Positions 3,101 through 60,728 of a stretch of DNA of 64,000 nt are shown here, in pieces. The DNA comes from Escherichia phage A4: sequence record ON286972; one strand, written 5' to 3'. The position numbers and the translations under genes are program-made. The notes below the pieces were generated by a model, which was not told the origin of the DNA, did no database searches, and saw nothing but the letters and a program-made list of their open reading frames with translations. Numbering within the stretch: position 1 is the first letter of the stretch; the number at the start of each line of letters is the position of its first letter.

Positions 3101-4540
3101 ATGAAAAAATACACAATTGACACAAACGTACTACTATCCGATCCAAATGCAACTGTAGCATTTGATGGGGCAGCAGTGATTCTACCATTCACTGTTCTTG
3201 AAGAACTTGATTCAATCAAGAGCCGTAATGTTGACGTATCACGTGATGCACGTTTCGCAATCCGTAACATCGATGCAATTCTGAAAGATGCTACTCATGA
3301 AGAAATCAGCAGTACTGGTGTTAATATTGCCAATATCCACAAAAATATGGATGCATCCAGTAAGCTATTCGTTATGACGAATGAAGAAGCTGAAGCACTT
3401 ATTCGTATGGGCGGCAGTGAAGATAAAGTAGAAACTCTACTTAAAAGTACTGTACCAGATGACAAAATCATTCTAGTGGCTTTGGCATCACAATCAGTAC
3501 TGGTAACTCGCGACATTAACATGCGTATCAAAGCAATGAGCTACGGTGTTGAGGTACAAGATTACCGTCATGACGTTGCAATCGAAGATAGTGAGTTGAT
3601 TCATATTGGTCAGCACCACCTTGATATTGATTTCTGGAAAACATTCAGTGAAGTTAATAATGCTGAAATTAAATCCCAACAAGAAGGTCGCCGTCTATAT
3701 CACTATATTCCAACCGCATTGATTCAAGATGTTCTACCAGATAATCTATGTATTGGTGATTATCTATATGATAATGCTGATGTACTATTCGTATACGAAG
3801 GTCAATCTGCTATCGAAGAAGAAGACGGTTCACTAACACCTGAAGATATTTTGGTATTCCAGGATATTGGTCAAAGTATCGCTCTTCGTGCTAAAGTTTG
3901 GGATATTAAAGCAAAGAATATTCAACAGGCACTAGCAATTAACAGTATTCTTGACCCTGATGTACATTTGACAGTACTACTCGGTTCAGCAGGTACTGGT
4001 AAAACATTGATTACTGTTGCTACTTCACTCGAATTAGTGCTGGAAAAACGTAAATACGATCGTATAATCTTCTCCAAAACACAAGATTCTCAATTTGAAG
4101 AAATTGGTTTCTTGCCTGGTTCTGAAGCTGAGAAGGTCATCCCATTCTGTGGGGCTGCAATTGATGCACTAGAGTATCTACACAAAGACGATGCTAACCC
4201 ACAAGGTAGTATTGAAGAGATTCTCAAACGTAACGTAATGCAGTTTAAAGCATTGAACTTTATTCGTGGTCGTTCTTTTACTAATACAATTCTAATTGTT
4301 GATGAATTCCAGAACATCACCCCTGCACAGGCAAAAACTATTCTTACCCGTGCAGGTCAAAACTGTAAGGTTATCATTATGGGTAACTTAGCACAGATTG
4401 ATAGTAAGTTTATTAGTCCAGTTAATAGTGGTTTGACATATGTAACTGAAAAATTCAAAGATTGGGAAGGGTGTCGTATCATTGAATTGGAAGGTGTTGT
4501 ACGTTCTGCACTTGCAGAGTTTGCAGAAGAAAATATGTAA
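3101..4540 (+). CDS. phoH: PhoH-like ATPase with N-terminal PIN-like domain
   Basis: Walker A GSAGTGKT, Walker B IVDEFQN; N-terminal ~130 aa PIN-like; start moved to ATG 3101 (MKKYTIDTN) with AAGGA upstream. Confidence 0.7.
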   Translation: MKKYTIDTNVLLSDPNATVAFDGAAVILPFTVLEELDSIKSRNVDVSRDARFAIRNIDAILKDATHEEISSTGVNIANIHKNMDASSKLFVMTNEEAEALIRMGGSEDKVETLLKSTVPDDKIILVALASQSVLVTRDINMRIKAMSYGVEVQDYRHDVAIEDSELIHIGQHHLDIDFWKTFSEVNNAEIKSQQEGRRLYHYIPTALIQDVLPDNLCIGDYLYDNADVLFVYEGQSAIEEEDGSLTPEDILVFQDIGQSIALRAKVWDIKAKNIQQALAINSILDPDVHLTVLLGSAGTGKTLITVATSLELVLEKRKYDRIIFSKTQDSQFEEIGFLPGSEAEKVIPFCGAAIDALEYLHKDDANPQGSIEEILKRNVMQFKALNFIRGRSFTNTILIVDEFQNITPAQAKTILTRAGQNCKVIIMGNLAQIDSKFISPVNSGLTYVTEKFKDWEGCRIIELEGVVRSALAEFAEENM

Positions 4541-4547
4541 TCTATTA

Positions 4548-4576
4548 TTGACATTAAATGTGTTCATTGCTATAAT
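4548..4576 (+). promoter_or_regulatory. sigma70-type promoter (TTGACA-17-TATAAT)
   Basis: TTGACA 4548-4553, 17-bp spacer, TATAAT 4571-4576, ~30 bp upstream of ORF 4609. Confidence 0.55.
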
Positions 4577-4608
4577 GAACACACCATTATCGAAGAAGGA
4601 AGTAAATC

Positions 4609-4797
4609 ATGGCTAAACAACCTAAGAAAAAAGAACCAGAAGTTAAAGTTAAAAAAGTGAAAGTTATTCAATCCAAAGAACAACGCACTTATGAGCTACG
4701 TAAAGCTGAAACTTTAAGTGGGCTTCAGTCTCTACGTAAGCAAGGTGTACTAACACGTGCACAATATCGTGAACTGGTTGCACAAAAAGGTTTTTGA
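4609..4797 (+). CDS. small basic protein
   Basis: 62-aa Lys/Arg-rich ORF, GAAGGAAG ribosome-binding site, consensus promoter upstream. Confidence 0.5.
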   Translation: MAKQPKKKEPEVKVKKVKVIQSKEQRTYELRKAETLSGLQSLRKQGVLTRAQYRELVAQKGF

Positions 4798-4900
4798 TTT
4801 AACGCGTTTTTTTGGAGTTCTTAATAAATACTTTCATAAGAATAATAATACTTTTTATGAATTTAAAAAGAACTCCATGTGTTATTTCAGTAAGTTTTTC

Positions 4901-4927
4901 ATCCCTGTCAATTGGCAGGGATTTTTT
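4901..4927 (+). terminator. rho-independent terminator
   Basis: hairpin ATCCCTG-loop-CAGGGAT followed by TTTTT. Confidence 0.5.
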
Positions 4928-4941
4928 ATTGGTGGTAAACT

Positions 4942-5688
4942 ATGGATCTTGAAAAACAAACCGAAGCAATCATCACCGAACTAATCAAAATTGGTTATAA
5001 ATGCCCATTTATCTATGGTTCGTGGAATACTTTTTGTTTGTATAAGTATGATGACAAATTACCAAATGATATTGATGTTATTAATATAGTACCAGAAGAG
5101 TTTGAAGAAGGTGAGTTCTCTGTAAAATTAGATTGTATTGATATACCTGTCAATATTGAATGTATGACTCTCAATCATCTTCGTGTCGAATTAATGCGTG
5201 GTGATGTTAAATACTATACCATCGGTTTTGGTACTATTGTACCGAAATGTGCAAATCATCTTTTGATGTACCTTGGTCATATCGGTTCGGTTATGATGAC
5301 ACGCCGTAACAGTGAGATTCGTAAAATTTGCAGTACTGCATCAGATAAAGCCTTTAATAAAGGAAAAAAGAAGTTGACAGTACTGGAAGATTACGATAAG
5401 ATGTTAGGACTAAAGAACATCTGGCATAGCATTCACTTCATCTATATCATTACGCATTATTACAATCTGTACAGATCTAACACTGAACATGAAATGAATA
5501 TTGCGTCGATGAAACAAGAGTTTGATGTGCTTGAAATGCTGAACATTCGCGACAACATCTATAAGATATATGATGAAACATATGGTGATTATCATGTAAA
5601 AGCACAAGCTGTTATTGATTACGCGAAACCGATTCGTAACAAACTGATGACTGAATTTAGAAAATTATACCCCAAGGAGGATGTATGA
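4942..5688 (+). CDS. hypothetical protein (possible minimal nucleotidyltransferase fold)
   Basis: 248-aa ORF; YGSW..(17)..DIDV resembles GS..DxD nucleotidyltransferase signature, weak. Confidence 0.4.
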   Translation: MDLEKQTEAIITELIKIGYKCPFIYGSWNTFCLYKYDDKLPNDIDVINIVPEEFEEGEFSVKLDCIDIPVNIECMTLNHLRVELMRGDVKYYTIGFGTIVPKCANHLLMYLGHIGSVMMTRRNSEIRKICSTASDKAFNKGKKKLTVLEDYDKMLGLKNIWHSIHFIYIITHYYNLYRSNTEHEMNIASMKQEFDVLEMLNIRDNIYKIYDETYGDYHVKAQAVIDYAKPIRNKLMTEFRKLYPKEDV

Positions 5689-5751
5689 AAGATACTTTCA
5701 GAGGTCGCATGACTTTCCATTAAGGAACTTTAACTTAATGGAGAAAATAAT

Positions 5752-6309
5752 ATGTTCTTTGACCAAACATTTACGTTGTACCATGATTCTGGAAAAGTAG
5801 AGATTGTTGATAATCTTCTACAATATATTGCTGACCACGAAGGGGTTGAACGATTTCACAGCAAAATGAAATTTGATTTATCCGAGTTCAACAAGAAGAA
5901 TCGTGAATCATTCTGGAAAAATCGTTTCTATTATGAAATGTATCCTGAAAAGTTTGTCAGTTATTATCTCTGTACTGAAAAAGGTTTACTTGTATCGCCT
6001 GATTTACTTATGGGTGAATACATGGTTCTCTATAATGAGTACTGGGAACATAAACGTAAGGCCCGTGACACCGAATGGCGACACAAACGCTCTTACATGT
6101 ACAAGCATAACCATTTTCGCTACAAACGTCCTAAGACCCAACAAGAGCGTCGTATGGCGTGTGCAGTACTGAAGGATGATGGTGAACCTGATATTCGTGG
6201 AAAACGCAAGATGCGTTCACTACCGACATATTGGGACGATTTTAGAACAAGACACAGTACTGGCTGGAAATACAGTACTAAACGTAAACATCAATACAAA
6301 GGGAGCTAA
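5752..6309 (+). CDS. hypothetical protein, basic Arg/Lys/Tyr-rich C-terminus
   Basis: 185-aa ORF, AATGGAG ribosome-binding site. Confidence 0.45.
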   Translation: MFFDQTFTLYHDSGKVEIVDNLLQYIADHEGVERFHSKMKFDLSEFNKKNRESFWKNRFYYEMYPEKFVSYYLCTEKGLLVSPDLLMGEYMVLYNEYWEHKRKARDTEWRHKRSYMYKHNHFRYKRPKTQQERRMACAVLKDDGEPDIRGKRKMRSLPTYWDDFRTRHSTGWKYSTKRKHQYKGS

Positions 6310-6336
6310 TGCTCCCTATTTTTATATAGGTATATT

Positions 6337-6666
6337 ATGAACAAAATTGACGTTGAAGTTGTTATTGGCTATATTGAAATTGAACAGTGTGGTATTGATA
6401 CATTTATTGACACTCTTAATAAGTACCGTGCAGAGTACAAGGGGCACATTAGTCTTTCACCAGACGGTGGTTACGGCGGGTTCGATGGATACAATGTAAT
6501 TTGGACACGAGAAGAAACGGATGAAGAATACAATATCCGTTTGCAGTTAGAATCACAACGTCGCGAAGAAATTGAACGTCAAGAAATGAAACATTTAATG
6601 AACAAGAAATCATTAAGTGCTGAAGAGAAATCTAAACTTCTAAAATATATCAAGGATTACATGTAA
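6337..6666 (+). CDS. hypothetical protein
   Basis: 109-aa ORF; ATGTAATG junction with next gene. Confidence 0.45.
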   Translation: MNKIDVEVVIGYIEIEQCGIDTFIDTLNKYRAEYKGHISLSPDGGYGGFDGYNVIWTREETDEEYNIRLQLESQRREEIERQEMKHLMNKKSLSAEEKSKLLKYIKDYM

Positions 6667-7316
6667 TGAAAAATGTAACTCAAGAAAAGATTCTGTATCA
6701 CGCTAAACATAACGGTTCTTTCAATATTATTAGTCGAGAATACGTTGGTCATATGGCTAAGTTGATTGATAATTTATTGGAATTTGATTTCCTGAAATGG
6801 GAAACTAATAATCTTTGGTATGAATACGCTGGACAGCAATGGGAAAGTGATTATGATAATGCAACACATTCATATACTATCACCAAAGCAGGTGAAGTTC
6901 GTTTAGCCATTATGCGTTGTGCATATGCTTACAAAAATCACAAAGGTGAAGAAAAACATACTCGCAGAAATGAAGAGCTATTGCTTCTCATGGAATCAGC
7001 GAAAGTTACAATGTATGATTTGTTCAACCATCCGCGTTGGTATGAAAATCTAACCAAAGCAGAGTACAAAGCGTTGCGTTACATTGATGAACAGACCAAA
7101 ACGCCAATTTTAGTAGATGATGTAAGTGACGGTGAACTAAGCCTCAAATGTGTATTTGACAATTCCAGTACTGAGAGCATTGCTGACATTTCAGTACAAA
7201 TGGCACTTAAAGCTATGGAACTATTCAAGACGCAATACCAAGGTACAAATGCCGATGAAATTGAACGTGAGTTCATTACACGCGTACAGATTGCATTAGC
7301 TAAGACCAAAACTTAA
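6666..7316 (+). CDS. hypothetical protein
   Basis: 216-aa ORF. Confidence 0.45.
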   Translation: MKNVTQEKILYHAKHNGSFNIISREYVGHMAKLIDNLLEFDFLKWETNNLWYEYAGQQWESDYDNATHSYTITKAGEVRLAIMRCAYAYKNHKGEEKHTRRNEELLLLMESAKVTMYDLFNHPRWYENLTKAEYKALRYIDEQTKTPILVDDVSDGELSLKCVFDNSSTESIADISVQMALKAMELFKTQYQGTNADEIEREFITRVQIALAKTKT

Positions 7317-7334
7317 AAACATTGGAAAATAATC

Positions 7335-7520
7335 ATGAAAAGACTTGCATATGTATTAGTATTAATGTTAATATCATCTTGTTCACTAATGGACTTTAAA
7401 TACAGTACACAATACTATTCAGTGTTTGAAGAAGCACCAGATAACTGTTTACTAGAAAGTAATCAGATGTATGTCATTAATGGTGAAACAAAATTACAAT
7501 ACATTTGCAAAGAGGATTAA
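7335..7520 (+). CDS. putative small lipoprotein
   Basis: signal peptide with lipobox-like LISSC. Confidence 0.4.
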   Translation: MKRLAYVLVLMLISSCSLMDFKYSTQYYSVFEEAPDNCLLESNQMYVINGETKLQYICKED

Positions 7521-7523
7521 TTC

Positions 7524-7757
7524 ATGAAAAAGATTATCATTTCTTGTTTAGTTGCTGGGGCAACCTTACTCGTAGGCTGTGCACCTAAAGTTAACGAGAT
7601 GGATGCAGAAATGATCCGTAAGGACTTAACTAAACTGAATCATAATGGCACACTCTATGCCTGTCATGAGATGCGTCACGGACAGGATCTAAATCTTATG
7701 TGTCGCAAAATTGTTAACCGCAAACGCTTAACAACAGTTCCAAAGGATGCTCAATGA
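7524..7757 (+). CDS. putative small lipoprotein
   Basis: MKKIIISCLVAGATLLVGC: canonical lipobox LVGC. Confidence 0.5.
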   Translation: MKKIIISCLVAGATLLVGCAPKVNEMDAEMIRKDLTKLNHNGTLYACHEMRHGQDLNLMCRKIVNRKRLTTVPKDAQ

Positions 7758-7779
7758 AAGACGTAATGGGATATAAACT

Positions 7780-8139
7780 ATGAGTGATTATGTTGCATTC
7801 CTACATCGTTTTGGTAAAGCTGAAGAAAAGCACATCATTCGTCTACCAGCTTATGGTGAGAAAGACTGGTACAAAAGTACTATCAGCGTAGGTGCATTCC
7901 GTGACCGTGAAGCTGAATTCTTTCTCGGTAAGCAACATGAACGAGCAGTACTTTGCTCCCTTTGGCGTTTAGACGAATGGGATGAAGAGAATGCAAGAAC
8001 TGCGGTATCAATGCTTAAAATTGTTGGCATTGCAAACTATCAGCACCCATATGATCTATTACCTACGTTTACCCATGCTTCATTGTTTGACTTTTATAAA
8101 GCAATCGGGTATGATTATAAAAAGAAACGTTATATCTGA
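7780..8139 (+). CDS. hypothetical protein
   Basis: 119-aa ORF. Confidence 0.45.
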   Translation: MSDYVAFLHRFGKAEEKHIIRLPAYGEKDWYKSTISVGAFRDREAEFFLGKQHERAVLCSLWRLDEWDEENARTAVSMLKIVGIANYQHPYDLLPTFTHASLFDFYKAIGYDYKKKRYI

Positions 8140-8149
8140 GGATCAATCC

Positions 8150-8953
8150 ATGTCGAATCCAATCTGTAAGCATTGTTCAAAAACTAAATTCTACCATGAA
8201 CCACATACATTGAAATGTCCTAAACCTTCTCGTTCTCTTCTCGTCACTTATGAAGATGTTAATGTATATGATGAAGTAGTTTCTGAACCAAACGTTTTAG
8301 TTATTCCAGAAATCAATCAAACCGTAAGTACATTACTAGATTGGAAAGAACAGATTACCAATGTAGATGATTTTGTTATTCCGTTACATGACAAACAATG
8401 GGTTTTTGATACGATTTATAAAAATGCCGATGTTGATTGTGAAGAAGAAGCAGATGACCTAAAATGTGCATTAAACAATTGTGATGGAACTGTCGTTTTA
8501 GGTAAACCGGATACTGCAAATGATGGAACTTATCTAATGTTTGGTATGAAAACCAATATCGGTGAACTTGAAGATGATTATTGCCTTCTTGATAATATTA
8601 CATTAATAGAATGGAGTAAGCTTTCTAATTTAGAATTGATTGAAATTGGCACTTTTGAAAGTCATATGGATATTGATGAAAGTAAGAATAAAGGTATTAA
8701 TGCCTTTATGTCTGAAGTTATTGGGCGTTCATTGTATAGTCCCGATTCCGTTGATATCAAAACGACTGCTGATTGTAAAGCATTCCTAAAGCAAGAATAT
8801 GATGTTGAAAAAGCAAAACGCATTAAAAAAGAAAAATGGGGTCAAATCGAATACCGCTTATTTGAATCAGATGAAGGTAGACATTACACCTTAGTATCGT
8901 ATAACGATAAACTAATTTCTCATTACGCTTTTGCATATAACGAAGACTACTAA
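8150..8953 (+). CDS. hypothetical protein with N-terminal Cys-rich segment
   Basis: start moved to ATG 8150 (MSNPICKHCSK) with GAGGA 7 nt upstream; track ORF from 7982 overlaps previous gene. Confidence 0.5.
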   Translation: MSNPICKHCSKTKFYHEPHTLKCPKPSRSLLVTYEDVNVYDEVVSEPNVLVIPEINQTVSTLLDWKEQITNVDDFVIPLHDKQWVFDTIYKNADVDCEEEADDLKCALNNCDGTVVLGKPDTANDGTYLMFGMKTNIGELEDDYCLLDNITLIEWSKLSNLELIEIGTFESHMDIDESKNKGINAFMSEVIGRSLYSPDSVDIKTTADCKAFLKQEYDVEKAKRIKKEKWGQIEYRLFESDEGRHYTLVSYNDKLISHYAFAYNEDY

Positions 8954-8997
8954 TAGTTCAGTACTGTCCATGTGGCAGTACTTTTTATGGAGACTAT

Positions 8998-9615
8998 ATG
9001 ACTACATCACAAAAGTACTGGTGGATTTTGGGACACCCTGAATTTATCAATAAAGACTACGTTGATGCTCGCATTGATGTTGAGCCACACGATGTATGTC
9101 CCATCACAAATCGAATTGAAGATTATCCGGCCCTGAATACAAAAACACAGTACTGGATCGAAATGCTAACTCCGTTTTTCGATGAAGACGAAGGGAAGTT
9201 CGTTCGTGGACATGAGTACGAGTTGGATTGTGGTGGTGATACATATGAAGAAGCAATTGATAATTTATACACCAAGATCCTAGAAAAGTACGGTGATTAC
9301 ACACAAGAAGAAGCGGAAGCTAAGTATGATGCTGTACATCAGCGTGTAGTGACGAAAAGTGCTTTTCCTTCATCAATGTTCCAACCAGAAGAACTTCGTA
9401 ACACATGGGAGAACTCAAAATTATCTGAAATTGAACGTGATTATATTCCAGGTGATATTGAAAACATTAAAGGTACAATAAAAGCCTTGAAAGAATTCCT
9501 CAAAACTTGTACAATAGAAGAACAAGAAGAGGCAAACAAACATTTACAATCCGAGGAATGTAAACTATGGGTGCTTGAGGAATCACTTAGAAAAGGCATA
9601 GACTACAACATATGA
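8998..9615 (+). CDS. hypothetical acidic protein
   Basis: 205-aa ORF; followed by hairpin using AGTACTG arms at ~8958-8990 upstream. Confidence 0.45.
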   Translation: MTTSQKYWWILGHPEFINKDYVDARIDVEPHDVCPITNRIEDYPALNTKTQYWIEMLTPFFDEDEGKFVRGHEYELDCGGDTYEEAIDNLYTKILEKYGDYTQEEAEAKYDAVHQRVVTKSAFPSSMFQPEELRNTWENSKLSEIERDYIPGDIENIKGTIKALKEFLKTCTIEEQEEANKHLQSEECKLWVLEESLRKGIDYNI

Positions 9616-9980
9616 ACCCGAAATTGCTTAAACTGGTAGAAGAACTCCGTGAGATGCCGCCGATTGAACAAGTTGGCAATTACAAACGGTATAGAGTAAT
9701 TGCTCGTGCACTGGATAAGAAAGGTCGAGTACTGGCTACTCGTACCAACTCTTACACACAGACTCACCCTAAGCAGAAAGGCTTTGCAATTCGTGCGGGT
9801 CGCCCTCAAGGGGAATTTTTACACGCTGAAATTTCGTGTCTTCTTGCTGCTCGTGCTGAAGTACATACTCTTCTTATCGCTCGTGTAAGTAAAGATGGAA
9901 TTCCAGTTCCAGCAAAACCTTGTGAGATTTGTACATTAGCAATTCAGGAGTACGGGGTAAAAGAGATTATCCATACATGA
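9612..9980 (+). CDS. cytidine/deoxycytidylate deaminase-fold zinc enzyme
   Basis: HAE ... PCEIC zinc-binding signature (H[AC]E and PCxxC). Confidence 0.5.
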   Translation: MNPKLLKLVEELREMPPIEQVGNYKRYRVIARALDKKGRVLATRTNSYTQTHPKQKGFAIRAGRPQGEFLHAEISCLLAARAEVHTLLIARVSKDGIPVPAKPCEICTLAIQEYGVKEIIHT

Positions 9981-10198
9981 AAATTGAACGATATCAGCAC
10001 CATACTGTACTGTTTGGTGAATCAATAATGTACTATTATATTTTTGAGCCAAAACATTCGTTACAAATAACTATATACGAAAATGGTAAATTTAAAGATA
10101 CCAATTTCCCATTACATGAATTGGCATTATATTCCAGTACTGATCACTTTAAGCATTTAGTATTTGTATATTGTATTCCAAATGAAAACGAGGAATAA
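9977..10198 (+). CDS. hypothetical protein
   Basis: start set at ATG 9977 overlapping previous stop; track ORF from 9929 overlaps. Confidence 0.3.
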   Translation: MKIERYQHHTVLFGESIMYYYIFEPKHSLQITIYENGKFKDTNFPLHELALYSSTDHFKHLVFVYCIPNENEE

Positions 10199-10200
10199 CT

Positions 10201-10611
10201 ATGTTAGAAGATGAGTTTCTAAAATTAAGTAGAAAGATATTTGATATACTAGGTGATGAAACAGATTTCAATCTAAGCGATAAAGATATCCCATTGGAAG
10301 ATGGTGGTTTCTTTTTCGCATTTGGATCTACGTATAATCTGGATATTTCAAAGCCTATCAGTGATGATAGTGATTATACTGCAACAACATATTTTGATTT
10401 CCAGCTTAATGGACACAAAGAGCGTTTACTAACGTACAGACGTAAAGGTAGTTTCAATAGAACCGAGATTACATTAATGGATTTTGAGAAACGCATCGAA
10501 CTCGCGAAGAAACATCCATTCATCAGTACTCATGCGTTTAATAGGCTAATCGATCTATTAGACAGTTATCCAGAGACAATACGAGGGTCATTACGTTTAA
10601 ATGCAGATTGA
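10201..10611 (+). CDS. hypothetical protein
   Basis: 136-aa ORF. Confidence 0.45.
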   Translation: MLEDEFLKLSRKIFDILGDETDFNLSDKDIPLEDGGFFFAFGSTYNLDISKPISDDSDYTATTYFDFQLNGHKERLLTYRRKGSFNRTEITLMDFEKRIELAKKHPFISTHAFNRLIDLLDSYPETIRGSLRLNAD

Positions 10612-10786
10612 AATTTTTAAAAAAGAATATGATGGTGAAAGTATCTGTGATATCCAACGTGATGTACATGAAGCGTTTAATTCCAGATTCAATCCATTAG
10701 TTGCTCAAATTCCACAAGATGAGTATGGATTCCAGGAAGGTACATTTACTGTAACTATTACATGGAGTCCAGATGAGACTAATTAA
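10601..10786 (+). CDS. hypothetical small protein
   Basis: 61-aa ORF overlapping previous gene end. Confidence 0.3.
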   Translation: MQIEIFKKEYDGESICDIQRDVHEAFNSRFNPLVAQIPQDEYGFQEGTFTVTITWSPDETN

Positions 10787-10863
10787 ACTATTCATTGGTT
10801 GCAGTGCAATTGCAATTTATATGTTATGCTAATCTGGTCAGTTGTTATTTTGTCTATTCTATA

Positions 10864-10888
10864 AAGCACCCAAGTGGTGCTTTTTGTG
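10864..10888 (+). terminator. rho-independent terminator
   Basis: AAGCACC-CAAGT-GGTGCTT hairpin then TTTTT. Confidence 0.55.
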
Positions 10889-11019
10889 TTTGTACAGTAC
10901 TTAATCAATTGCACTTTTCCTTGATTTAGGTCAAGAGAAAAAGGCCAATATGAGGCTATAATGCTCTTTGTTGAAGTTAAATAAATTCACCCAAACGAAT
11001 AACATACAAGGAATGTGAA

Positions 11020-12825
11020 ATGCAAATAGATAAATTATATACGGACGTAACTAACTTCCTCAACCAGAGTAACGCTGATTTAACAAACGAAAATGCAAAT
11101 AAAGACGCTAAATGTGTTAATACACATCGTGATTTATTGGCAGGTATTCTTTCTAAACATTATTCCCAAGATGTGATTCCTGATGAATTGATGAAGTGGC
11201 ATAATGAAGGTTACGGTCATATTCATGATTTAGACTATTACATTAGCCCATTAACAAACTGTTGTTTAGTTAATTATCCTGATATGCTTGCTAATGGCTT
11301 CATGATTGGTTGTGCCAAGATTGAAGAACCAAAAAGCTTTGGGGTAGCTTGTACAGTACTAACACAGATTGTTCAGGCTGTTGCAAGCTCACAGTACGGT
11401 GGTCAGTCGTTGGCTCACATTGACACTGGCCTTGCACCATATGTACAAAAGTCATGGAATAAACTTCTAGAAAAACAAAAGAAATACAATCTTAGTACTG
11501 AATTCATTGAAGATGAGTTGCGTAAGGAAGTTTATGACGGTTGTCAAACAATTCTATATCAAACAAACTCAATGATCAGTACTAATGGTCAGGCTGCGTT
11601 CATTTCTTTAAGTTTAGGATTAGGTACATCTAAATTTGAAAAACTAATCACTGAACAATATTTGAAAGTACATGAAAATGGACTAGGTAAAGATAAGATT
11701 ACTCCAGTATTCCCTAAAGTAATATTCTTTCTTCAGGATGGAATTAATATGAACAGTACTGATTGTAATTATGACTTAAAACAATTAGCTATGCGTTGTG
11801 CAGCTAAACGCATCTATCCTGATTTTGTATCAGTACCTTTGAATCAAAAAGTTACTGGAAGCACAACTATTCCTGTTACTCCGATGGGATGCAGAAGTTT
11901 CTTAGGGAAATGGGAAAATACACAAGGAGAAGAAAAATACAATGGTAGATTCAACCTTGGCGTTGTGTCTATCAACTTACCACTAATTGCTCTTGAGAGT
12001 GAGTCTGATGGTGATTTCTTTGATAAGATTGACGAGCACATGAATATTGCTTACAGAGCACAGATGAACCGTGTAGAACGTTTAAAAGGTACAAAGGCAA
12101 AACAAAACCCTATACTTTTCGCTGAAGGTGCGATTGCACGTCTTGATCCTGAAGACACTATTGACCATTTATTTTATAATGGTTATGCTAGTATCAGTAT
12201 TGGTTATGTTGGGTTATCTGAGTGTTCAGAGATCCTCACTGGTTCAATTAGTAAAGAGTTCTGTATGAGTATTTTGAACTACATGAAAGCAAAATGTGAT
12301 GAATTCAAAAAAGAGAGTAACATTGCATTTAGTCTTTACGGTACACCAGCAGAATCACTATGTTATAAATTTGCACGTTGTATTGAGGCAAAACATCCTT
12401 CAGTACTGAAACGTGACTTTATCACTAACTCATTCCATCAACCAGTATGGGTTGAAAGTACACCTTTTGCTAAATGGGATTATGAGGAAAACTTTGCTTA
12501 TCTAAGCAATGGTGGTAATATTAGCTATGTCGAAACACCAAATCTAGCTAATAATATACAAGCACTAGAAACATTAATAAATTTTGCTTATACTAAAATT
12601 CCATATTTTGGTATTAATCAGAAGGTCGATAAGTGTTTTGAATGTGATTTTGAGGGTGAATTTAGTGTAGATAAAAATGGTTTCCATTGTCCGGTATGTG
12701 ACAACCGCAATGAACGCACAATGTCGGTTATTCGCAGAGTATCAGGATATCTTAGTGCACCAAATAGTCGCCCGTTCAATAAAGGTAAACAAGCTGAAGT
12801 TATTCAACGTATACAACACATGTAA
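11020..12825 (+). CDS. nrdD: anaerobic ribonucleoside-triphosphate reductase (class III)
   Basis: 601-aa; C-terminal Cys cluster CFECDFEG..CPVCDN and glycyl-radical-like RRVSGYL; adjacent nrdG. Confidence 0.8.
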   Translation: MQIDKLYTDVTNFLNQSNADLTNENANKDAKCVNTHRDLLAGILSKHYSQDVIPDELMKWHNEGYGHIHDLDYYISPLTNCCLVNYPDMLANGFMIGCAKIEEPKSFGVACTVLTQIVQAVASSQYGGQSLAHIDTGLAPYVQKSWNKLLEKQKKYNLSTEFIEDELRKEVYDGCQTILYQTNSMISTNGQAAFISLSLGLGTSKFEKLITEQYLKVHENGLGKDKITPVFPKVIFFLQDGINMNSTDCNYDLKQLAMRCAAKRIYPDFVSVPLNQKVTGSTTIPVTPMGCRSFLGKWENTQGEEKYNGRFNLGVVSINLPLIALESESDGDFFDKIDEHMNIAYRAQMNRVERLKGTKAKQNPILFAEGAIARLDPEDTIDHLFYNGYASISIGYVGLSECSEILTGSISKEFCMSILNYMKAKCDEFKKESNIAFSLYGTPAESLCYKFARCIEAKHPSVLKRDFITNSFHQPVWVESTPFAKWDYEENFAYLSNGGNISYVETPNLANNIQALETLINFAYTKIPYFGINQKVDKCFECDFEGEFSVDKNGFHCPVCDNRNERTMSVIRRVSGYLSAPNSRPFNKGKQAEVIQRIQHM

Positions 12826-28257: not shown

Positions 28258-28869
28258 ATGTCTAAATATCATGTTTATTATGTAACCAAATTGAGTTTAC
28301 TAGATGAACTCAATCATACTAGTACCAAAATGAAACGTTATACTTATAATGGTATTACTTTCAGATACTTTCCACAAAAAGTACTAACATTCGTTAAGAA
28401 TTGTAAGTGCATTGCTTGTGGCATCGAGGCTACAGAAGTTCGAATCGAACGTTCCAACTGTAGTGATCCGGTATATGGTAAACCGCATTTAAATGTGTAT
28501 GCAGTATGTGGTCTTTATGAAGTTATGATGACTGTAGATCATAATCATCTTGCATCTAAAGGTGGTGCTGATTTGGAGTCAAACTTTAATACAATGTGTG
28601 CGAGATGTAATCAGTTGCGTTCAAATAAAACTGAAACGGTTGATGAATTCCTTGAGAAAGTCAAAAACCGAAATCTACTTGAAGAACATATGAATCGTTA
28701 TTTCAATAAGATTGAGAAGGAAAGTAAACGTCCTACACCAGAAATGCTCGAAGAACGTAGATTGCGTCAAGAGCTATGGGATAACGATCATCTGTGGCAT
28801 GTTCGTGAGTACGGGCGACACATGAAAGCATTAAAAAAGGCACAAAAGCTGTTGGATAAACATGAGTAA
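28258..28869 (+). CDS. HNH endonuclease
   Basis: VDHNHLASKGGADLESNFNTMCARCNQLRSNK (HNH core) plus upstream CxxC. Confidence 0.6.
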   Translation: MSKYHVYYVTKLSLLDELNHTSTKMKRYTYNGITFRYFPQKVLTFVKNCKCIACGIEATEVRIERSNCSDPVYGKPHLNVYAVCGLYEVMMTVDHNHLASKGGADLESNFNTMCARCNQLRSNKTETVDEFLEKVKNRNLLEEHMNRYFNKIEKESKRPTPEMLEERRLRQELWDNDHLWHVREYGRHMKALKKAQKLLDKHE

Positions 28870-28922: not shown

Positions 28923-29279
28923 ATGAAATCAAAAATCTTTTTACCACAGTTAATGTGGCATCTTGCAGAGTTAGATGAAGATGATGTGTATACAGACTAT
29001 GGTGCATGGGATGACAGTACTGAAACCGTTGGTCCAGATGTGCAGTACAAAATCATTTGCAATGAAAGTAAAGGGCATAGACGATTTACTGAAGAATTTG
29101 ATCTTGTTTTTCTTGACATAAACGAGAACAAGTATTATCATTGTACGTATGAACGAGGTTTAACAGAATATCGACCACAACGACCATTCGAGTATGAAAC
29201 GGATGGTGTTAAGTGCAATGAAGTTTCTGTTACCAGAGAAGAAATTATCACTTATAGAACTTTGTGGAAATATGTGTAA
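28923..29279 (+). CDS. hypothetical protein
   Basis: 118-aa ORF. Confidence 0.45.
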   Translation: MKSKIFLPQLMWHLAELDEDDVYTDYGAWDDSTETVGPDVQYKIICNESKGHRRFTEEFDLVFLDINENKYYHCTYERGLTEYRPQRPFEYETDGVKCNEVSVTREEIITYRTLWKYV

Positions 29280-29677
29280 TGCTTAAAGATTTAGATTTTT
29301 CAAACTTAGAAATTGTTAGTGCTGTGAAAAATATCTCTGACATGGGAGACGAAAAGACAGTACTGTTAACTATTACATTTGTCAAAGAAGAAGATAGTTA
29401 TTTACATCTTACAGGTATTGAAGAACTAATTCATAAAACTAATCTACAAGATAATAGGAAGTATATTAAGCTTCAGGCTTCCTATACGAAAAAAACGTCA
29501 AATTTTGTAGACCTAAATAGTGTAGTCAAGGTGGTATTCAATCACCCTGAACAAAAGTACAGAAATGTGTCACGCAATGAGACAGATGCCAGTACTCTAC
29601 AGCTTCTTCAGGATATTGAGTTCATTGAAACAGTATTTGAACGAAGCAGCAAAGAATTGAAAAAAGTTTATATGTAA
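29279..29677 (+). CDS. hypothetical protein
   Basis: start ambiguous (track 29264; ATG 29279 overlaps previous stop). Confidence 0.4.
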   Translation: MLKDLDFSNLEIVSAVKNISDMGDEKTVLLTITFVKEEDSYLHLTGIEELIHKTNLQDNRKYIKLQASYTKKTSNFVDLNSVVKVVFNHPEQKYRNVSRNETDASTLQLLQDIEFIETVFERSSKELKKVYM

Positions 29678-29679
29678 TT

Positions 29680-29707
29680 GGGACAATACTTTATATTGTG
29701 CTATAAT
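29680..29707 (+). promoter_or_regulatory. promoter (GGGACA-16-TGcTATAAT, extended -10)
   Basis: same AATTGGGACAA..TGnTATAAT architecture as promoter at 60668-60695. Confidence 0.45.
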
Positions 29708-29713
29708 TATATT

Positions 29714-30253
29714 GTAATGGAAAATGTCAGTGGACGTTTTAACAACGGACAAGAAGAACCTACTTCTCTTGAAAATGTAAAGGATAGATGAGCCTTCCCA
29801 CTGAGGCGATGAGCAAAAGAAACCCGTTAGTACCATCCAAGTGCATTCATACAAACGCGAAATAAGACACGGATCACACGGCGACACGGCTCAATAAAGA
29901 ACTCCGATAAGCATACAGAGAGTTCCTCGATAGATGTATAAGGATCGCACCTTACCAGATTTGCTAAGGGAGTTTTACTTAAAACAAGCGGTCAATTTTT
30001 CTACGGGAAAGTTGCACCCAAAATTTGAGTAAAACGAGTACTGAATTGATCGAATAGTTCCAGTACTTTAGTGCAGGGGATGAAAATACCTGCGACCGTT
30101 GCATATGACTGCGATAGAGAGAAACAGAGCAACCCGCTTTCGTTCTCCAAAAATTGGACACCCTTGATCCGTCCAAAATATGGAGAAATTCGCAATTCGA
30201 TAAATTCCGATGCCATCAGCGTCAAAATCAAGAACCTTAATTGGTTCTTTTTT
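29714..30253 (+). ncRNA. candidate ~540-nt non-coding transcript (unclassified)
   Basis: no ORF >60 aa with a ribosome-binding site; only short overlapping ORFs in several frames; bounded by promoter 29680-29707 and terminator 30230-30253; locally GC-richer. Confidence 0.3.
30230..30253 (+). terminator. rho-independent terminator
   Basis: AAGAACC-TTAATT-GGTTCTT then TTTTTT. Confidence 0.55.
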
Positions 30254-30397
30254 AATATCATTCCCCTGCGGGGGGATGAAAATGTCCTCAACAAATCCCG
30301 TCAATCTTTAAAAGTACAATACAATATTAATTAATATGAATGAGTGAGTTATCGTAGATAACGAAACGAATTCTTGAGTTACGAGAGAACGAAGTGA

Positions 30398-30814
30398 ATG
30401 AGTAACGCAACGAATATTAAAAATTCATCTGATTTAACCAAAGAATTGTTTAAAAAGTTTTTTGAGTATCAAATCAATGAAGAGCATGGAATTAAACAGA
30501 ATTACATAAGTACAATAAAAACCAATAATATCCGAACTGAAATCTATGATAGTGTAATCGAATTTATTAATGCATTGAGTACTGAAAGACCTATAGTAGT
30601 TTTGTTTTTTAAACGAGATTATCCAGTACAAGTCAACAGGAATGTTCATTTCATTACAGAAAATGATTTAAGTACTTACACAACGAGTTCTCTTAGGAAT
30701 TGTATACTGATAGTATGTGATGACTCCGAGTATTATAGTAAAGTTGTATGGGATAGAAGACGTAATTCAGTAATAAGAGATATGAATCCCGAATTTACAT
30801 TTCTGATCAAATAA
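30398..30814 (+). CDS. hypothetical protein
   Basis: 138-aa ORF. Confidence 0.4.
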   Translation: MSNATNIKNSSDLTKELFKKFFEYQINEEHGIKQNYISTIKTNNIRTEIYDSVIEFINALSTERPIVVLFFKRDYPVQVNRNVHFITENDLSTYTTSSLRNCILIVCDDSEYYSKVVWDRRRNSVIRDMNPEFTFLIK

Positions 30815-30825
30815 ATAGACATAGA

Positions 30826-31287
30826 ATGACTCCCTGGAGAGATTTTATGGAAAATATTAACGACTTGCGACATGTTATGGACTTCATTGGCTGTACTGAA
30901 GAAGACAGTGCTTATGATGAAGTACTATTGACATTTATTGAAAACAGCATTATACTACCAGCAATTGCACATAGCTGGCATTTACAAAGTAAACACTACA
31001 CAAAACATCTACAATTAGATGAGTTGTATAAAGAGTTACCAGAATATGTCGATGCGTTCATTGAAGGCATTATGAACACTCGTGGTGCTTTACAAATTGG
31101 TACTGGACACAGTTATAAGTTCACACCAATTGAACAGTGTATTCCGATTCTTGAAGAATACTGTGAACAATGTAAGTACGTTCATGCTATGCTTGAAGAA
31201 GCTGAAGACTATGGCAGTACTAATACCCTTGAAGATATAATGAGTTTCATTGAGGGTACTTTATATAAACTTAAGTATCTTGAATAA
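30826..31287 (+). CDS. hypothetical protein
   Basis: 153-aa ORF. Confidence 0.45.
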   Translation: MTPWRDFMENINDLRHVMDFIGCTEEDSAYDEVLLTFIENSIILPAIAHSWHLQSKHYTKHLQLDELYKELPEYVDAFIEGIMNTRGALQIGTGHSYKFTPIEQCIPILEEYCEQCKYVHAMLEEAEDYGSTNTLEDIMSFIEGTLYKLKYLE

Positions 31288-31296
31288 TATAAACAT

Positions 31297-31326
31297 GGAG
31301 AGTCATTTTGACTCTCCTTTTCTTTT
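31297..31326 (+). terminator. rho-independent terminator
   Basis: GGAGAGTC-loop-GACTCTCC then T-rich run. Confidence 0.55.
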
Positions 31327-41798: not shown

Positions 41799-41884
41799 AA
41801 CTCTGGGACAAGAGAACGACTTCTGATATAATAATTGTATCTGGGCATCATTGCTATTAAGAGATAAGATTATGCGTTATAGTT

Positions 41885-42301: not shown

Positions 42302-42305
42302 TTAT

Positions 42306-42554
42306 ATGAAAGTGAAAATTTATGGTCGCACGACTGGTTGTAATTTCTGTGATACAGCAAAAGCAATTTGTGAGAACAATTCATTTGAAATGGATTTTAT
42401 CGATGTGGTTTCTGAAGGTATTGATGGTGCTAAACTATCAGAAATTTGCGGTGAGCCAGTTCGTCAAGTTCCACAAATTTTCGTAAATGATGAGTATGTT
42501 CCTGGTGGATGTACTGGTTTTGTTAACGGGCTAAAAGAAGGTCGCTGGAACTAA
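42306..42554 (+). CDS. glutaredoxin/thioredoxin-fold protein (NrdC-like)
   Basis: CNFC active-site motif near N-terminus, ~82 aa. Confidence 0.55.
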   Translation: MKVKIYGRTTGCNFCDTAKAICENNSFEMDFIDVVSEGIDGAKLSEICGEPVRQVPQIFVNDEYVPGGCTGFVNGLKEGRWN

Positions 42555-42793
42555 TGAATATCGATAAGGTATCATCACGAGCACGTGCATTGGCTGACAG
42601 TTTGGGAGTTAAATTTGAAACTCCAGATATCAACCAATCAAAACAAAAAGCTCAAAAGAAAATTCATGAAATGAAAGAATACACATCAAGACGTGAAGAA
42701 TACGATGCTGCTATTTCTCACATTATTGAAGTGTTTAGTAAAGATGATATTTTAGCATTTATTGCTTCACATGAGGTTGTAAAAAACCCCTAA
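42554..42793 (+). CDS. hypothetical protein
   Basis: 79-aa ORF, ATGA overlap. Confidence 0.4.
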   Translation: MNIDKVSSRARALADSLGVKFETPDINQSKQKAQKKIHEMKEYTSRREEYDAAISHIIEVFSKDDILAFIASHEVVKNP

Positions 42794-42828
42794 ATAATAT
42801 TGAAGAACAACAAGTTCTTCTTAACAAT

Positions 42829-43086
42829 TTGGGAGATACTATTATGCTCAGTTTTCGTGAACAATTAGCAAAAGGTCAATTTCAGACTAAAGCTCAAACA
42901 AATATTCCTAAAAAATCTGCATTCTTAGGAACAATTACGGAAGATGGTTATTGTGACTTCAATCCACCAGAAGATAGCTGGTATATTGAAAAAGACACAA
43001 AACGTAGTAATAGACTTCACAAAAGTACAATAGCAAGAAAGCATCGAAAAGAATTGAAGAAAATTCGTTTCGGTGAAGAAGAATAA
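42829..43086 (+). CDS. hypothetical basic protein
   Basis: 85-aa ORF. Confidence 0.4.
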   Translation: MGDTIMLSFREQLAKGQFQTKAQTNIPKKSAFLGTITEDGYCDFNPPEDSWYIEKDTKRSNRLHKSTIARKHRKELKKIRFGEEE

Positions 43087-43100
43087 CCTAATAATATAAA

Positions 43101-43130
43101 GGACTTGAGATTATCGAGTCCTTTTCTTTT
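43101..43130 (+). terminator. rho-independent terminator
   Basis: GGACTTGA-GATTA-TCGAGTCC (one wobble) then T-rich run. Confidence 0.5.
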
Positions 43131-60621: not shown

Positions 60622-60641
60622 AAATAAATATAGAGAACGAT

Positions 60642-60670
60642 TCGTCGTTCTCTTTTATTTTATAATTGGG
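60642..60670 (+). terminator. rho-independent terminator
   Basis: AGAGAACG-loop-CGTTCTCT then TTTTATTTT. Confidence 0.55.
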
Positions 60671-60695
60671 ACAACCCAATTAACTATGATATAAT
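60668..60695 (+). promoter_or_regulatory. promoter (GGGACA-16-TGaTATAAT)
   Basis: AATTGGGACAA..ATGATATAAT, same architecture as 29680-29707. Confidence 0.45.
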
Positions 60696-60728
60696 GGAAA
60701 TCGTAATAACATACATGGAGAGTAATAT

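Follow-up and report, generated by a model that had tools for sequence, protein, structure and literature searches.

A large structured RNA family carried by RaK2-like jumbo phages and by rare chromosomal islands of Enterobacteriaceae

What does a phage keep in 720 bp between two genes when only short, overlapping open reading frames (ORFs) can be found there? Such a gap separates the gene of DUF7325 (29264-29677) from that of phrog_35272 (30398-30814) in Escherichia phage A4, in the 64,000-nt stretch of sequence record ON286972 analysed here (the window; coordinates are 1-based within it, and the RNA element lies on the + strand unless stated otherwise). A preliminary description, made from the letters of the window, had proposed here a structured non-coding RNA (ncRNA) of unassigned class, GC-richer than the flanking genes and bounded by a promoter and a terminator; it had named a covariance-model scan and a comparative alignment as checks, and a conserved coding frame as the finding that would speak against it. 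Our analysis leaves very little doubt that this is a genuine structured RNA locus. The non-coding element spans 29678 to ~30410 (+), and we favour, at a probability of roughly 0.6, the reading that it is the gene of a structured RNA acting in trans. It is composed of the following parts:

29678-29707, + strand: promoter, with the -35-like element TTGGGACA (29678-85), a spacer and the extended -10 element TGcTATAAT (29699-29707); start expected at ~29714
29714-30255, + strand: part A, a structured RNA body of ~540 nt, extending from the predicted start through the U-run
30230-30255, + strand: intrinsic-terminator-like hairpin AAGAACC-UUAAUU-GGUUCUU (stem 30230-30249) with U6 (30250-55)
30260-30304, + strand: part B, first half, with the hairpin AUUCCCC-UGC-GGGGGGAU (30260-77), GAAAAUG and the conserved strand CCUCAACAAAUCCCGUCAA (30286-30304)
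30340-30410, + strand: part B, second half, with GAAUGAG, the hairpin GUUAUC-GUA-GAUAAC (30348-62), GAAUUCUUGA and the hairpin GUUAC / GUAAC (30378-82 / 30402-06)

The element belongs to a family. The gap region is 78-82% identical to 121Q (Asteriusvirus, a RaK2-like jumbo phage), PBECO4 and JNE01, and it matches 71 phage records at 2-5 places per genome, the RaK2/121Q-like jumbo phages carrying 3-4 diverged copies each. The invariant core motif GATAGAGAGAAACnGAGnAACCCGCTTTCG, which occurs once in the window against 0 expected, was found, together with a looser version of it, at 16 viral loci, 47 metagenome loci and 3 loci in bacterial genome assemblies. A profile search returned 75 matches, of which 58 were distinct; these formed 45 clusters at <95% identity, 434-587 nt long, and 44 of them were aligned. 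The window's part A matches the family profile with an nhmmer E value of 1e-111. These 44 non-redundant homologues come from RaK2/121Q-like jumbo phages, metagenomes and rare chromosomal islands of Enterobacteriaceae, and members include Alcyoneusvirus K64-1/RaK2, Eneladusvirus, GAP32, CBB, Serratia BF, Erwinia phages, Xanthomonas XbC2 and XaC1 and Salmonella 7t3.

The comparative alignment gives the strongest evidence that the conserved object is a folded RNA. We curated a structure with 87 pairs, arranged in 17 helices, and scored it on the 44-sequence alignment against 500 shuffles of the pairing partners and against controls in which partners were slid by 1-3 columns. In this structure 88.8% of cells were paired, compared to 72.6±0.4% with partners shuffled; double-change cells numbered 619 against 195±12.5 in the shuffles (none of 500 reached the observed value) and 96-136 in the slid controls, and the covariation score was 0.452 against 0.07-0.09 in the latter. 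Compensatory changes were present in 64 of the 87 curated pairs, and the RNAalifold predictions agree with this (40 of 56 pairs with 44 sequences, 34 of 71 with 16 sequences). Additionally, the minimum free energy of the sequence, -137.1 kcal/mol, is far below that of dinucleotide shuffles (z = -4.32). The frequent G-U pairs (UG:36-38, GU:26-37), which would be C-A mismatches on the other strand, point to a product of the + strand only.

The fold consists of ~16 helices around multi-helix junctions, with a pseudoknot and several invariant loops and strands. Its elements in part A are:

29727-29804, + strand: pseudoknot of the 5' strand 29727-29734 (UCAGUGGA) with the P3 hairpin loop 29797-29804 (CCCACUGA); 7/8 pairs covary
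29766-70 / 29780-84, + strand: P1 hairpin with loop GAAAAUGUA, between the pseudoknot strands; 5/5 pairs covary
29788-92 / 30220-24, + strand: long-range contact of AUGAG with CGUCA that would close the central junction (UA:44, GC:43, AU:43)
29792-95 / 29805-07, + strand: P3 stem; 100% paired, 2/3 pairs covary
29810-14 / 29889-93, + strand: P4; 99.5% paired, 4/5 pairs covary
29824-27 / 29878-81, + strand: P5; 4/4 pairs covary
29899-904 / 29920-25, + strand: P6; 5/5 pairs covary
29939-43 / 29950-54, + strand: P7, a helix in the 29810-29954 segment
29965-72, + strand: invariant UAAGGGAG, with the candidate partner GACCGUUGC (30094-30102), enclosing P8, P9 and P10
29972-75 / 30032-35, + strand: P8; 4/4 pairs covary
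30037-48 / 30055-68, + strand: P9, a hairpin of 12-13 bp; 12/13 pairs covary, 95.5% of cells paired
30073-77 / 30090-94, + strand: P10, a variable hairpin with the first GGGGAUGAAAAU in its loop
30110-14 / 30190-94, + strand: P11, in the 3' core; 97% paired
30117-21 / 30137-41, + strand: P12; 100% paired, capped by the invariant 15-nt loop AAACAGAGCAACCCG (30122-36)
30143-47 / 30183-87, + strand: P13, a 3' core helix

The loop of P12 has the family form AAACAGrGCAACCCG, UAAGGGAG and GAAAAyGUA are further invariant loops, and the 29810-29954 segment holds the conserved strands GAAACCCGUUAG, CACGGCrAyryGGC, AUAAAG and CUCGAUAGAyrUAUAAGG. Two of the contacts listed are so conserved that the alignment gives no verdict on them: the nearly invariant AUGAG/CGUCA pairing is neither supported nor refuted by covariation, and the UAAGG/CCGUUG contact is a candidate only, since its strands are invariant and covariation offers no test of it.

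A coding origin of this conservation, be it as a protein gene, a decayed pseudogene or spacer DNA conserved by chance, can be given next to no weight. Both strands contain stop-free stretches of 85-97 codons, and small hypothetical ORFs are annotated at the locus in some GenBank records; the longest run of 85 codons is however ordinary against shuffles (70±17), and no ORF of the gap matched Pfam or PHROGs. Among homologue pairs >80% identical, indel lengths were mainly not multiples of three (200, 47 and 25 with remainders of 1, 2 and 0), and the mismatches between the window and 121Q fell on the three codon positions in the ratio 33/33/38, without 3-base periodicity. The conserved frame that would have spoken against an RNA was thus not seen, and the preliminary description was right that the gap has no convincing ORF. 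Across genera the element is also better conserved than its flanking genes, and its changes are compensatory. Each flanking ORF is a complete match to its family (DUF7325 1-131/131, phrog_35272 1-141/142). The expected contrast in composition was recovered as well, with a GC of 0.405-0.43 inside the element against 0.27-0.345 in the flanks (0.393 for the whole gap and 0.356 for the window). A micro-ORF of 11 codons 3' of the G-run (MKMSSTNPVNL) was considered and rejected, as it has a stop at codon 2 in 121Q and a shifted frame in other members. The ORFs of 23-51 aa annotated as 'hypothetical protein' over the RNA in many jumbo-phage records (e.g. KM507819 gene 516; LT960551 g347/g348) are almost certainly spurious. 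The window's largest stretch without a + strand ORF of at least 90 aa is found at 42302-43104 (803 nt, GC 0.339).

The promoter is of the sigma-70 extended -10 type. Its -35-like hexamer can be read as TTGGGA (29678-83) or GGGACA (29680-85), 16-18 bp from the -10 element, whose TG lies at 29699-700 and TATAAT at 29702-07. A single match of this kind is not above chance (17 promoter matches against 17.8 expected in a 4-kb scan), and the weight comes from its conservation in position and sequence in all homologues, as GGrACA-N13-15-TGnTATAAT. The same class (GGGACA-N14-TGATATAAT) stands before ordinary coding genes at 41805-41833 and 60668-60696, the latter with a terminator hairpin upstream, at 60636-60659. 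At the other end, the G+C-containing hairpin directly followed by a U-run has the form of an intrinsic terminator, and its stem covaries across homologues (CG:7 AU:4 UA:4 and similar) in the 16-sequence RNAalifold alignment, which gives the valid figures; in the curated structure the terminator columns, one of the 17 helices, were mis-registered (29.7% paired). This hairpin is missing in ~10 of the 44 homologues and is therefore not a family-defining feature, and in XaC1 and the type-2 paralogues a strong terminator is found only after part B.

The conserved element does not stop at the terminator. A further structured segment of ~150 nt, part B, follows at 30260-~30410, and its first half is conserved in phage and island copies alike. 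In every member, including the island copies, the 5' to 3' order is a C4-N3-G6 hairpin, GAUGAAAwUG, yCUCAACAAAyCyCGUCAr, an AT-rich spacer, a GAAUU...AAUUC helix around a hairpin with the loop rAACGnAGUGAr, and then a hairpin with member-specific stems. In the window, the start codon of phrog_35272 (30398) falls, together with the conserved ACGAAGUGA, in the loop of the last hairpin (30378-30406); in the equivalent hairpins of other members the loop rAACGnAGUGAr is kept while the stems differ (GUAC/GUAC, AUAAC/GUUAU, UCUAAAU/AUUUAGA and others). In Klebsiella phage K64-1 (1654-1750 of fetched locus L021), CGUCA is changed to CUUCA at two sites ~80 nt apart, one where part A ends and the other in the part B motif, and this concerted change suggests that the two motifs share a partner. 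With respect to the preliminary description, its extended -10 promoter (29680-29707) and clean terminator (30230-30253) are both present and kept in homologues, the one in all and the other, with a covarying stem, in most, while its end of the element at 30256 falls short of the conserved end at ~30410. It had also noted two copies of GGGGATGAAAAT; two there are, at 30076-30087 and 30272-30283, but the positions it gave were off by 1 and 5. The first copy is the loop of a variable hairpin, and the second is conserved across the family.

The genomic context of the copies varies. In 121Q three copies lie at 193, 247 and 326 kb, four were found in one 366-kb metagenome contig, and in Yersinia phage fHe-Yen9-04 the copies at 174 kb and at 260 kb differ in their intergenic context. 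A second copy inside the 64-kb window was not found by blastn, motif search, nhmmer or the covariance model with filters off. No protein neighbour is common to all copies, and the neighbours track paralogue-specific synteny. The 326-kb copy of 121Q is flanked by an endonuclease VII and a baseplate-hub gene, each encoded on the opposite strand, and units of this paralogue type are closed by a terminator after part B, which together indicate a stand-alone transcription unit. HNH or endonuclease VII genes are found near some copies only: in the window an HNH homing-endonuclease-like ORF is located at 28258-28869, two genes upstream of the RNA, and endonuclease VII-type genes adjoin one paralogue (121Q 326 kb, fHe-Yen9-04 174 kb), perhaps through synteny only. 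Downstream of phrog_35272 in the window there is a Dps-like DUF5856 gene at 30826-31317 (phrog_858, 'starvation-inducible' regulator), followed by a perfect 9-bp bidirectional terminator at 31297-31317.

Outside phages, the RNA was found in bacterial chromosomal islands. Two of 5426 complete E. coli genomes carry the full A+B unit with its promoter. In E. coli LR-29-1 (NZ_AP027515.1, ~3473200-3483800) it is held by a ~10-kb island beside ffs, the gene of the signal recognition particle RNA, together with an integrase split by IS3, hypothetical proteins, a membrane protein, DUF4326/DUF488/DuOB (dual-OB) genes and a recombinase. A second island type, present in Silvania hatchlandensis and several metagenome contigs, has the order large serine recombinase, variable cargo, RNA, convergent cI-like S24 repressor, Cro-like HTH_35, 286-aa membrane protein and LprI-like gene, and no replication or packaging genes were seen in this mini-element. 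It was delimited in two fetched loci:

3733-11451 of fetched locus L056: mini-element of the second type
4868-10803 of fetched locus L029 (Silvania hatchlandensis): mini-element of the second type

In Silvania, DarT, ADP-ribosylglycohydrolase and UvrD-like genes adjoin the mini-element, and the Enterobacteriaceae isolate RIT714 also has a copy of the RNA. Searches of jumbo phages with the island proteins returned no relevant homologues, leaving the RNA as the sole thing common to islands and phages, and no similar sequence was found in 72,556 plasmids. The alignment places the island RNAs within a single phage paralogue group, together with those of XaC1 and a 349-kb contig.

The RNA does not correspond to a catalogued class. 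The Rfam scan proposed in the preliminary description (Rfam 15, 4227 models) gave 0 matches at the gathering score in the whole window, and at E<=10 the 1 kb around the element and 11 divergent homologues gave only scattered matches far below threshold, none of them consistent; with the compensatory changes above, this bears out its proposal of a structured RNA of unassigned class between a promoter and a terminator. The covariance models of GOLLD, ROOL, OLE, HEARO and raiA were likewise unmatched in the window, in the 1 kb at E<=10 and in the 11 divergent homologues. ARAGORN found 0 tRNA or tmRNA genes in the window, and the Rfam tmRNA model had no match there. Several known catalysts were considered and rejected. 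No RNase P model matched even at E<=10, and a short resemblance to M1 RNA (CGACCgUuGCA..ACAGAGCAAcCCGC) is not collinear with the other motifs. For a group I or II intron, the flanking ORFs are complete, the intron models are unmatched and the stems of P9 covary freely without a conserved triad. For a hammerhead, AGAUGAG-stem-CG is present, but there is an A at the U position of CUGA, the GAA strand varies (CGAUG, CGAAG, CGUUG, CGCAG) and Rfam gives no match.

The closest likeness is to GOLLD, ROOL and OLE, the large 'ornate' ncRNAs of bacteria and phages (Harris & Breaker 2018; cryo-EM preprint 10.1101/2024.12.08.627333). These recently solved classes proved to be self-assembling RNA-only complexes. 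Like them, the present RNA measures several hundred nt, contains a pseudoknot and invariant loops besides its many covarying helices, and is a stand-alone gene of phages, as those are of phages and prophages. It differs in that it is not matched by their models, in its hosts (Firmicutes or rumen organisms there, phages of Enterobacterales here), in its 3-4 paralogues per genome and in having no tRNA neighbourhood. RNA sequencing (RNA-seq) has also shown large lytic phages to transcribe long non-coding units from gaps without ORFs, namely an abundant ~800-nt ncRNA in ICP1 (PMC7567579) and ncRNA001-004 in PA5oct (PMC7318152), a distant relative of the RaK2 clade. Those were defined by expression, with conserved structure unreported, whereas the present family is defined by sequence and structure; no homology to PA5oct ncRNA001, 002 and 004 was found by nhmmer --max at E<=10 or by the covariance model with filters off. 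With pseudo-ToxI of phage TE and the RNA anti-CRISPRs (clustered regularly interspaced short palindromic repeats), a single RNA family is likewise shared by a lytic phage and a chromosomal element of the mobile or defence type, but these RNAs are short repeats with a known protein partner, unlike the single-copy unit of 450-750 nt found here. Full-text searches of the literature gave no account of this RNA. It is an uncatalogued family within a known category, the large phage-associated structured RNAs, and it stands out by having paralogues and by occurring in chromosomal islands as well.

How might such an RNA work? Host RNA polymerase would start at the conserved promoter and would make an RNA of ~540 nt that ends at the intrinsic terminator, or a form of ~700 nt that includes part B where the hairpin is missing or read through. 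This RNA, probably transcribed early, would accumulate and act in trans as a folded molecule, possibly as a high-dosage scaffold or decoy whose invariant loops bind a conserved partner. Such a role is suggested by the 3-4 diverged paralogues per genome, the invariant cores with varying peripheral helices and the strength of the promoter, and the copy number in particular would fit a stoichiometric action. Furthermore, phages and islands keep the same invariant core without shared proteins, suggesting that the partner comes from the host cell or from the infecting phage. While trans action itself is what we favour, the specific scaffold or decoy mode is put forward tentatively. Several points weigh against these proposals. 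No transcript data for any family member were found in the literature, the binding partner is still only putative, and a ribozyme would account for the invariant loops no less than a decoy. Since the terminator is missing in ~10 members and conserved structure continues beyond it, there is uncertainty about the true 3' end. Lastly, the overlap of part B with a start codon leaves room for a cis effect in the window's paralogue.

That overlap also belongs to the case for a regulatory leader, in which the structured RNA and terminator would form an attenuation or antitermination device (a riboswitch, put or nut site) for the downstream gene. The order promoter, structured RNA, terminator, more RNA and gene is the classical one, and members lacking the terminator would be co-transcribed with downstream genes. 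The downstream genes, however, are unrelated to one another among paralogues (phrog_35272, a methyltransferase, an ADP-ribosylglycohydrolase), several units are closed by their own terminator after part B, and the gene that follows the 326-kb paralogue or the island copies is encoded on the opposite strand; the diversity of these genes and their orientation make a cis leader improbable as a general explanation. A narrower proposal concerns the part B hairpin only, which could be a solitary repeat resembling RNA anti-CRISPRs and mimicking type I-E repeats. The hairpin (30260-30283) has UUCCCC..GGGGAU[A/G]AA in common with the enterobacterial type I-E repeat GUGUUCCCCGCGCCAGCGGGGAUAAACCG, and Rfam CRISPR-DR39, DR37 and DR57 gave sub-threshold matches at 30247-30283 (18-23 bits against cut-offs of 39-40). 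But these matches have E ~1 and lie on the minus strand, and the similarity is confined to the 3' flank and the lower stem, whereas the loop and the upper stem differ. The hairpin is equally conserved in Yersinia and Xanthomonas phages, whose hosts are not known to have type I-E systems, and in the loci fetched it never occurs apart from part A, so that mimicry of this kind is very unlikely.

A cis-acting origin of replication was also considered, at which a persistent R-loop formed by the transcript would serve to prime DNA synthesis, the several copies being several origins and the islands using the RNA to replicate without a replication protein of their own. R-loop primers are known from ColE1 RNA II, T4 oriF/oriG and mitochondrial light-strand promoter (LSP)/conserved sequence block II (CSBII). 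The likeness to ColE1 and T4 lies in a structured RNA of ~550 nt that has its own promoter and is followed by a G/C-rich element (across members the RNA measures ~450-590 nt from the promoter, close to RNA II) and in multiple copies, as for the multiple origins of T4-like phages; the copies are ~54 kb to >80 kb apart in 121Q and fHe-Yen9-04. The conserved C4/G6 element with an AT-rich variable spacer 3' of part A, the island core without a recognisable replication gene and the location of one paralogue in a gp46/gp47/endonuclease VII recombination cluster would also fit. Against this, an intrinsic terminator precedes the putative transition point in most members, there is no antisense partner of the RNA I type, and sixteen covarying helices, a pseudoknot and invariant loops exceed the needs of known primer RNAs. 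The part B hairpins are RNA-like, with conserved loops and covarying stems, neither iterons nor DnaA boxes were seen, and the absence from plasmids noted above is a further point, all of which renders an origin unlikely. For the island copies, the RNA could instead be a handle in a conflict between phages and islands, the latter being satellites or defence elements of RaK2-like jumbo phages whose RNA mimics the phage RNA to capture a phage factor, or titrates such a factor and blocks the phage. This is compatible with trans action of the phage copies. It would account for full A+B units with their own promoter in SOS-type islands (recombinase, cargo, RNA, cI(S24)/cro, membrane protein, LprI-like) near DarT/ADP-ribosylglycohydrolase or DUF4326/DUF488/DuOB cargo, for the RNA alone being held in common and for its position inside one phage paralogue group. 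We nevertheless consider it rather unlikely, as evidence for a response of the islands to jumbo phages is absent, the islands are rare in E. coli, and the island proteins tested against the PADLOC defence models gave nothing except one weak partial match, of a 303-aa protein.

Large and conserved RNAs with an intricate fold are rare; ribozymes and the cores of ribonucleoproteins are among the few classes known. It is conceivable, though doubtful at present, that this new large ornate class, the sole component common to giant lytic phages and small SOS-inducible islands, is a currency of their interaction, the islands copying an essential RNA of the phage to hijack it as satellites or to poison it as a defence, or else that all these elements direct the RNA at one conserved machine of the host, perhaps in the form of a self-assembling particle similar to ROOL or GOLLD. 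The family sits in culturable and engineerable phages of E. coli, Klebsiella and Salmonella, which makes its function directly testable, and the depth of the alignment already suffices for the design of structure-guided mutants. Dozens of jumbo-phage GenBank records should carry an ncRNA feature in place of spurious 'hypothetical proteins'. For the biology of these phages, the presence of several paralogues that share an invariant core suggests a role that depends on dosage and falls early in infection, and the island copies beside defence-type cargo may offer an entry into a conflict between jumbo phages and mobile elements at the level of RNA.

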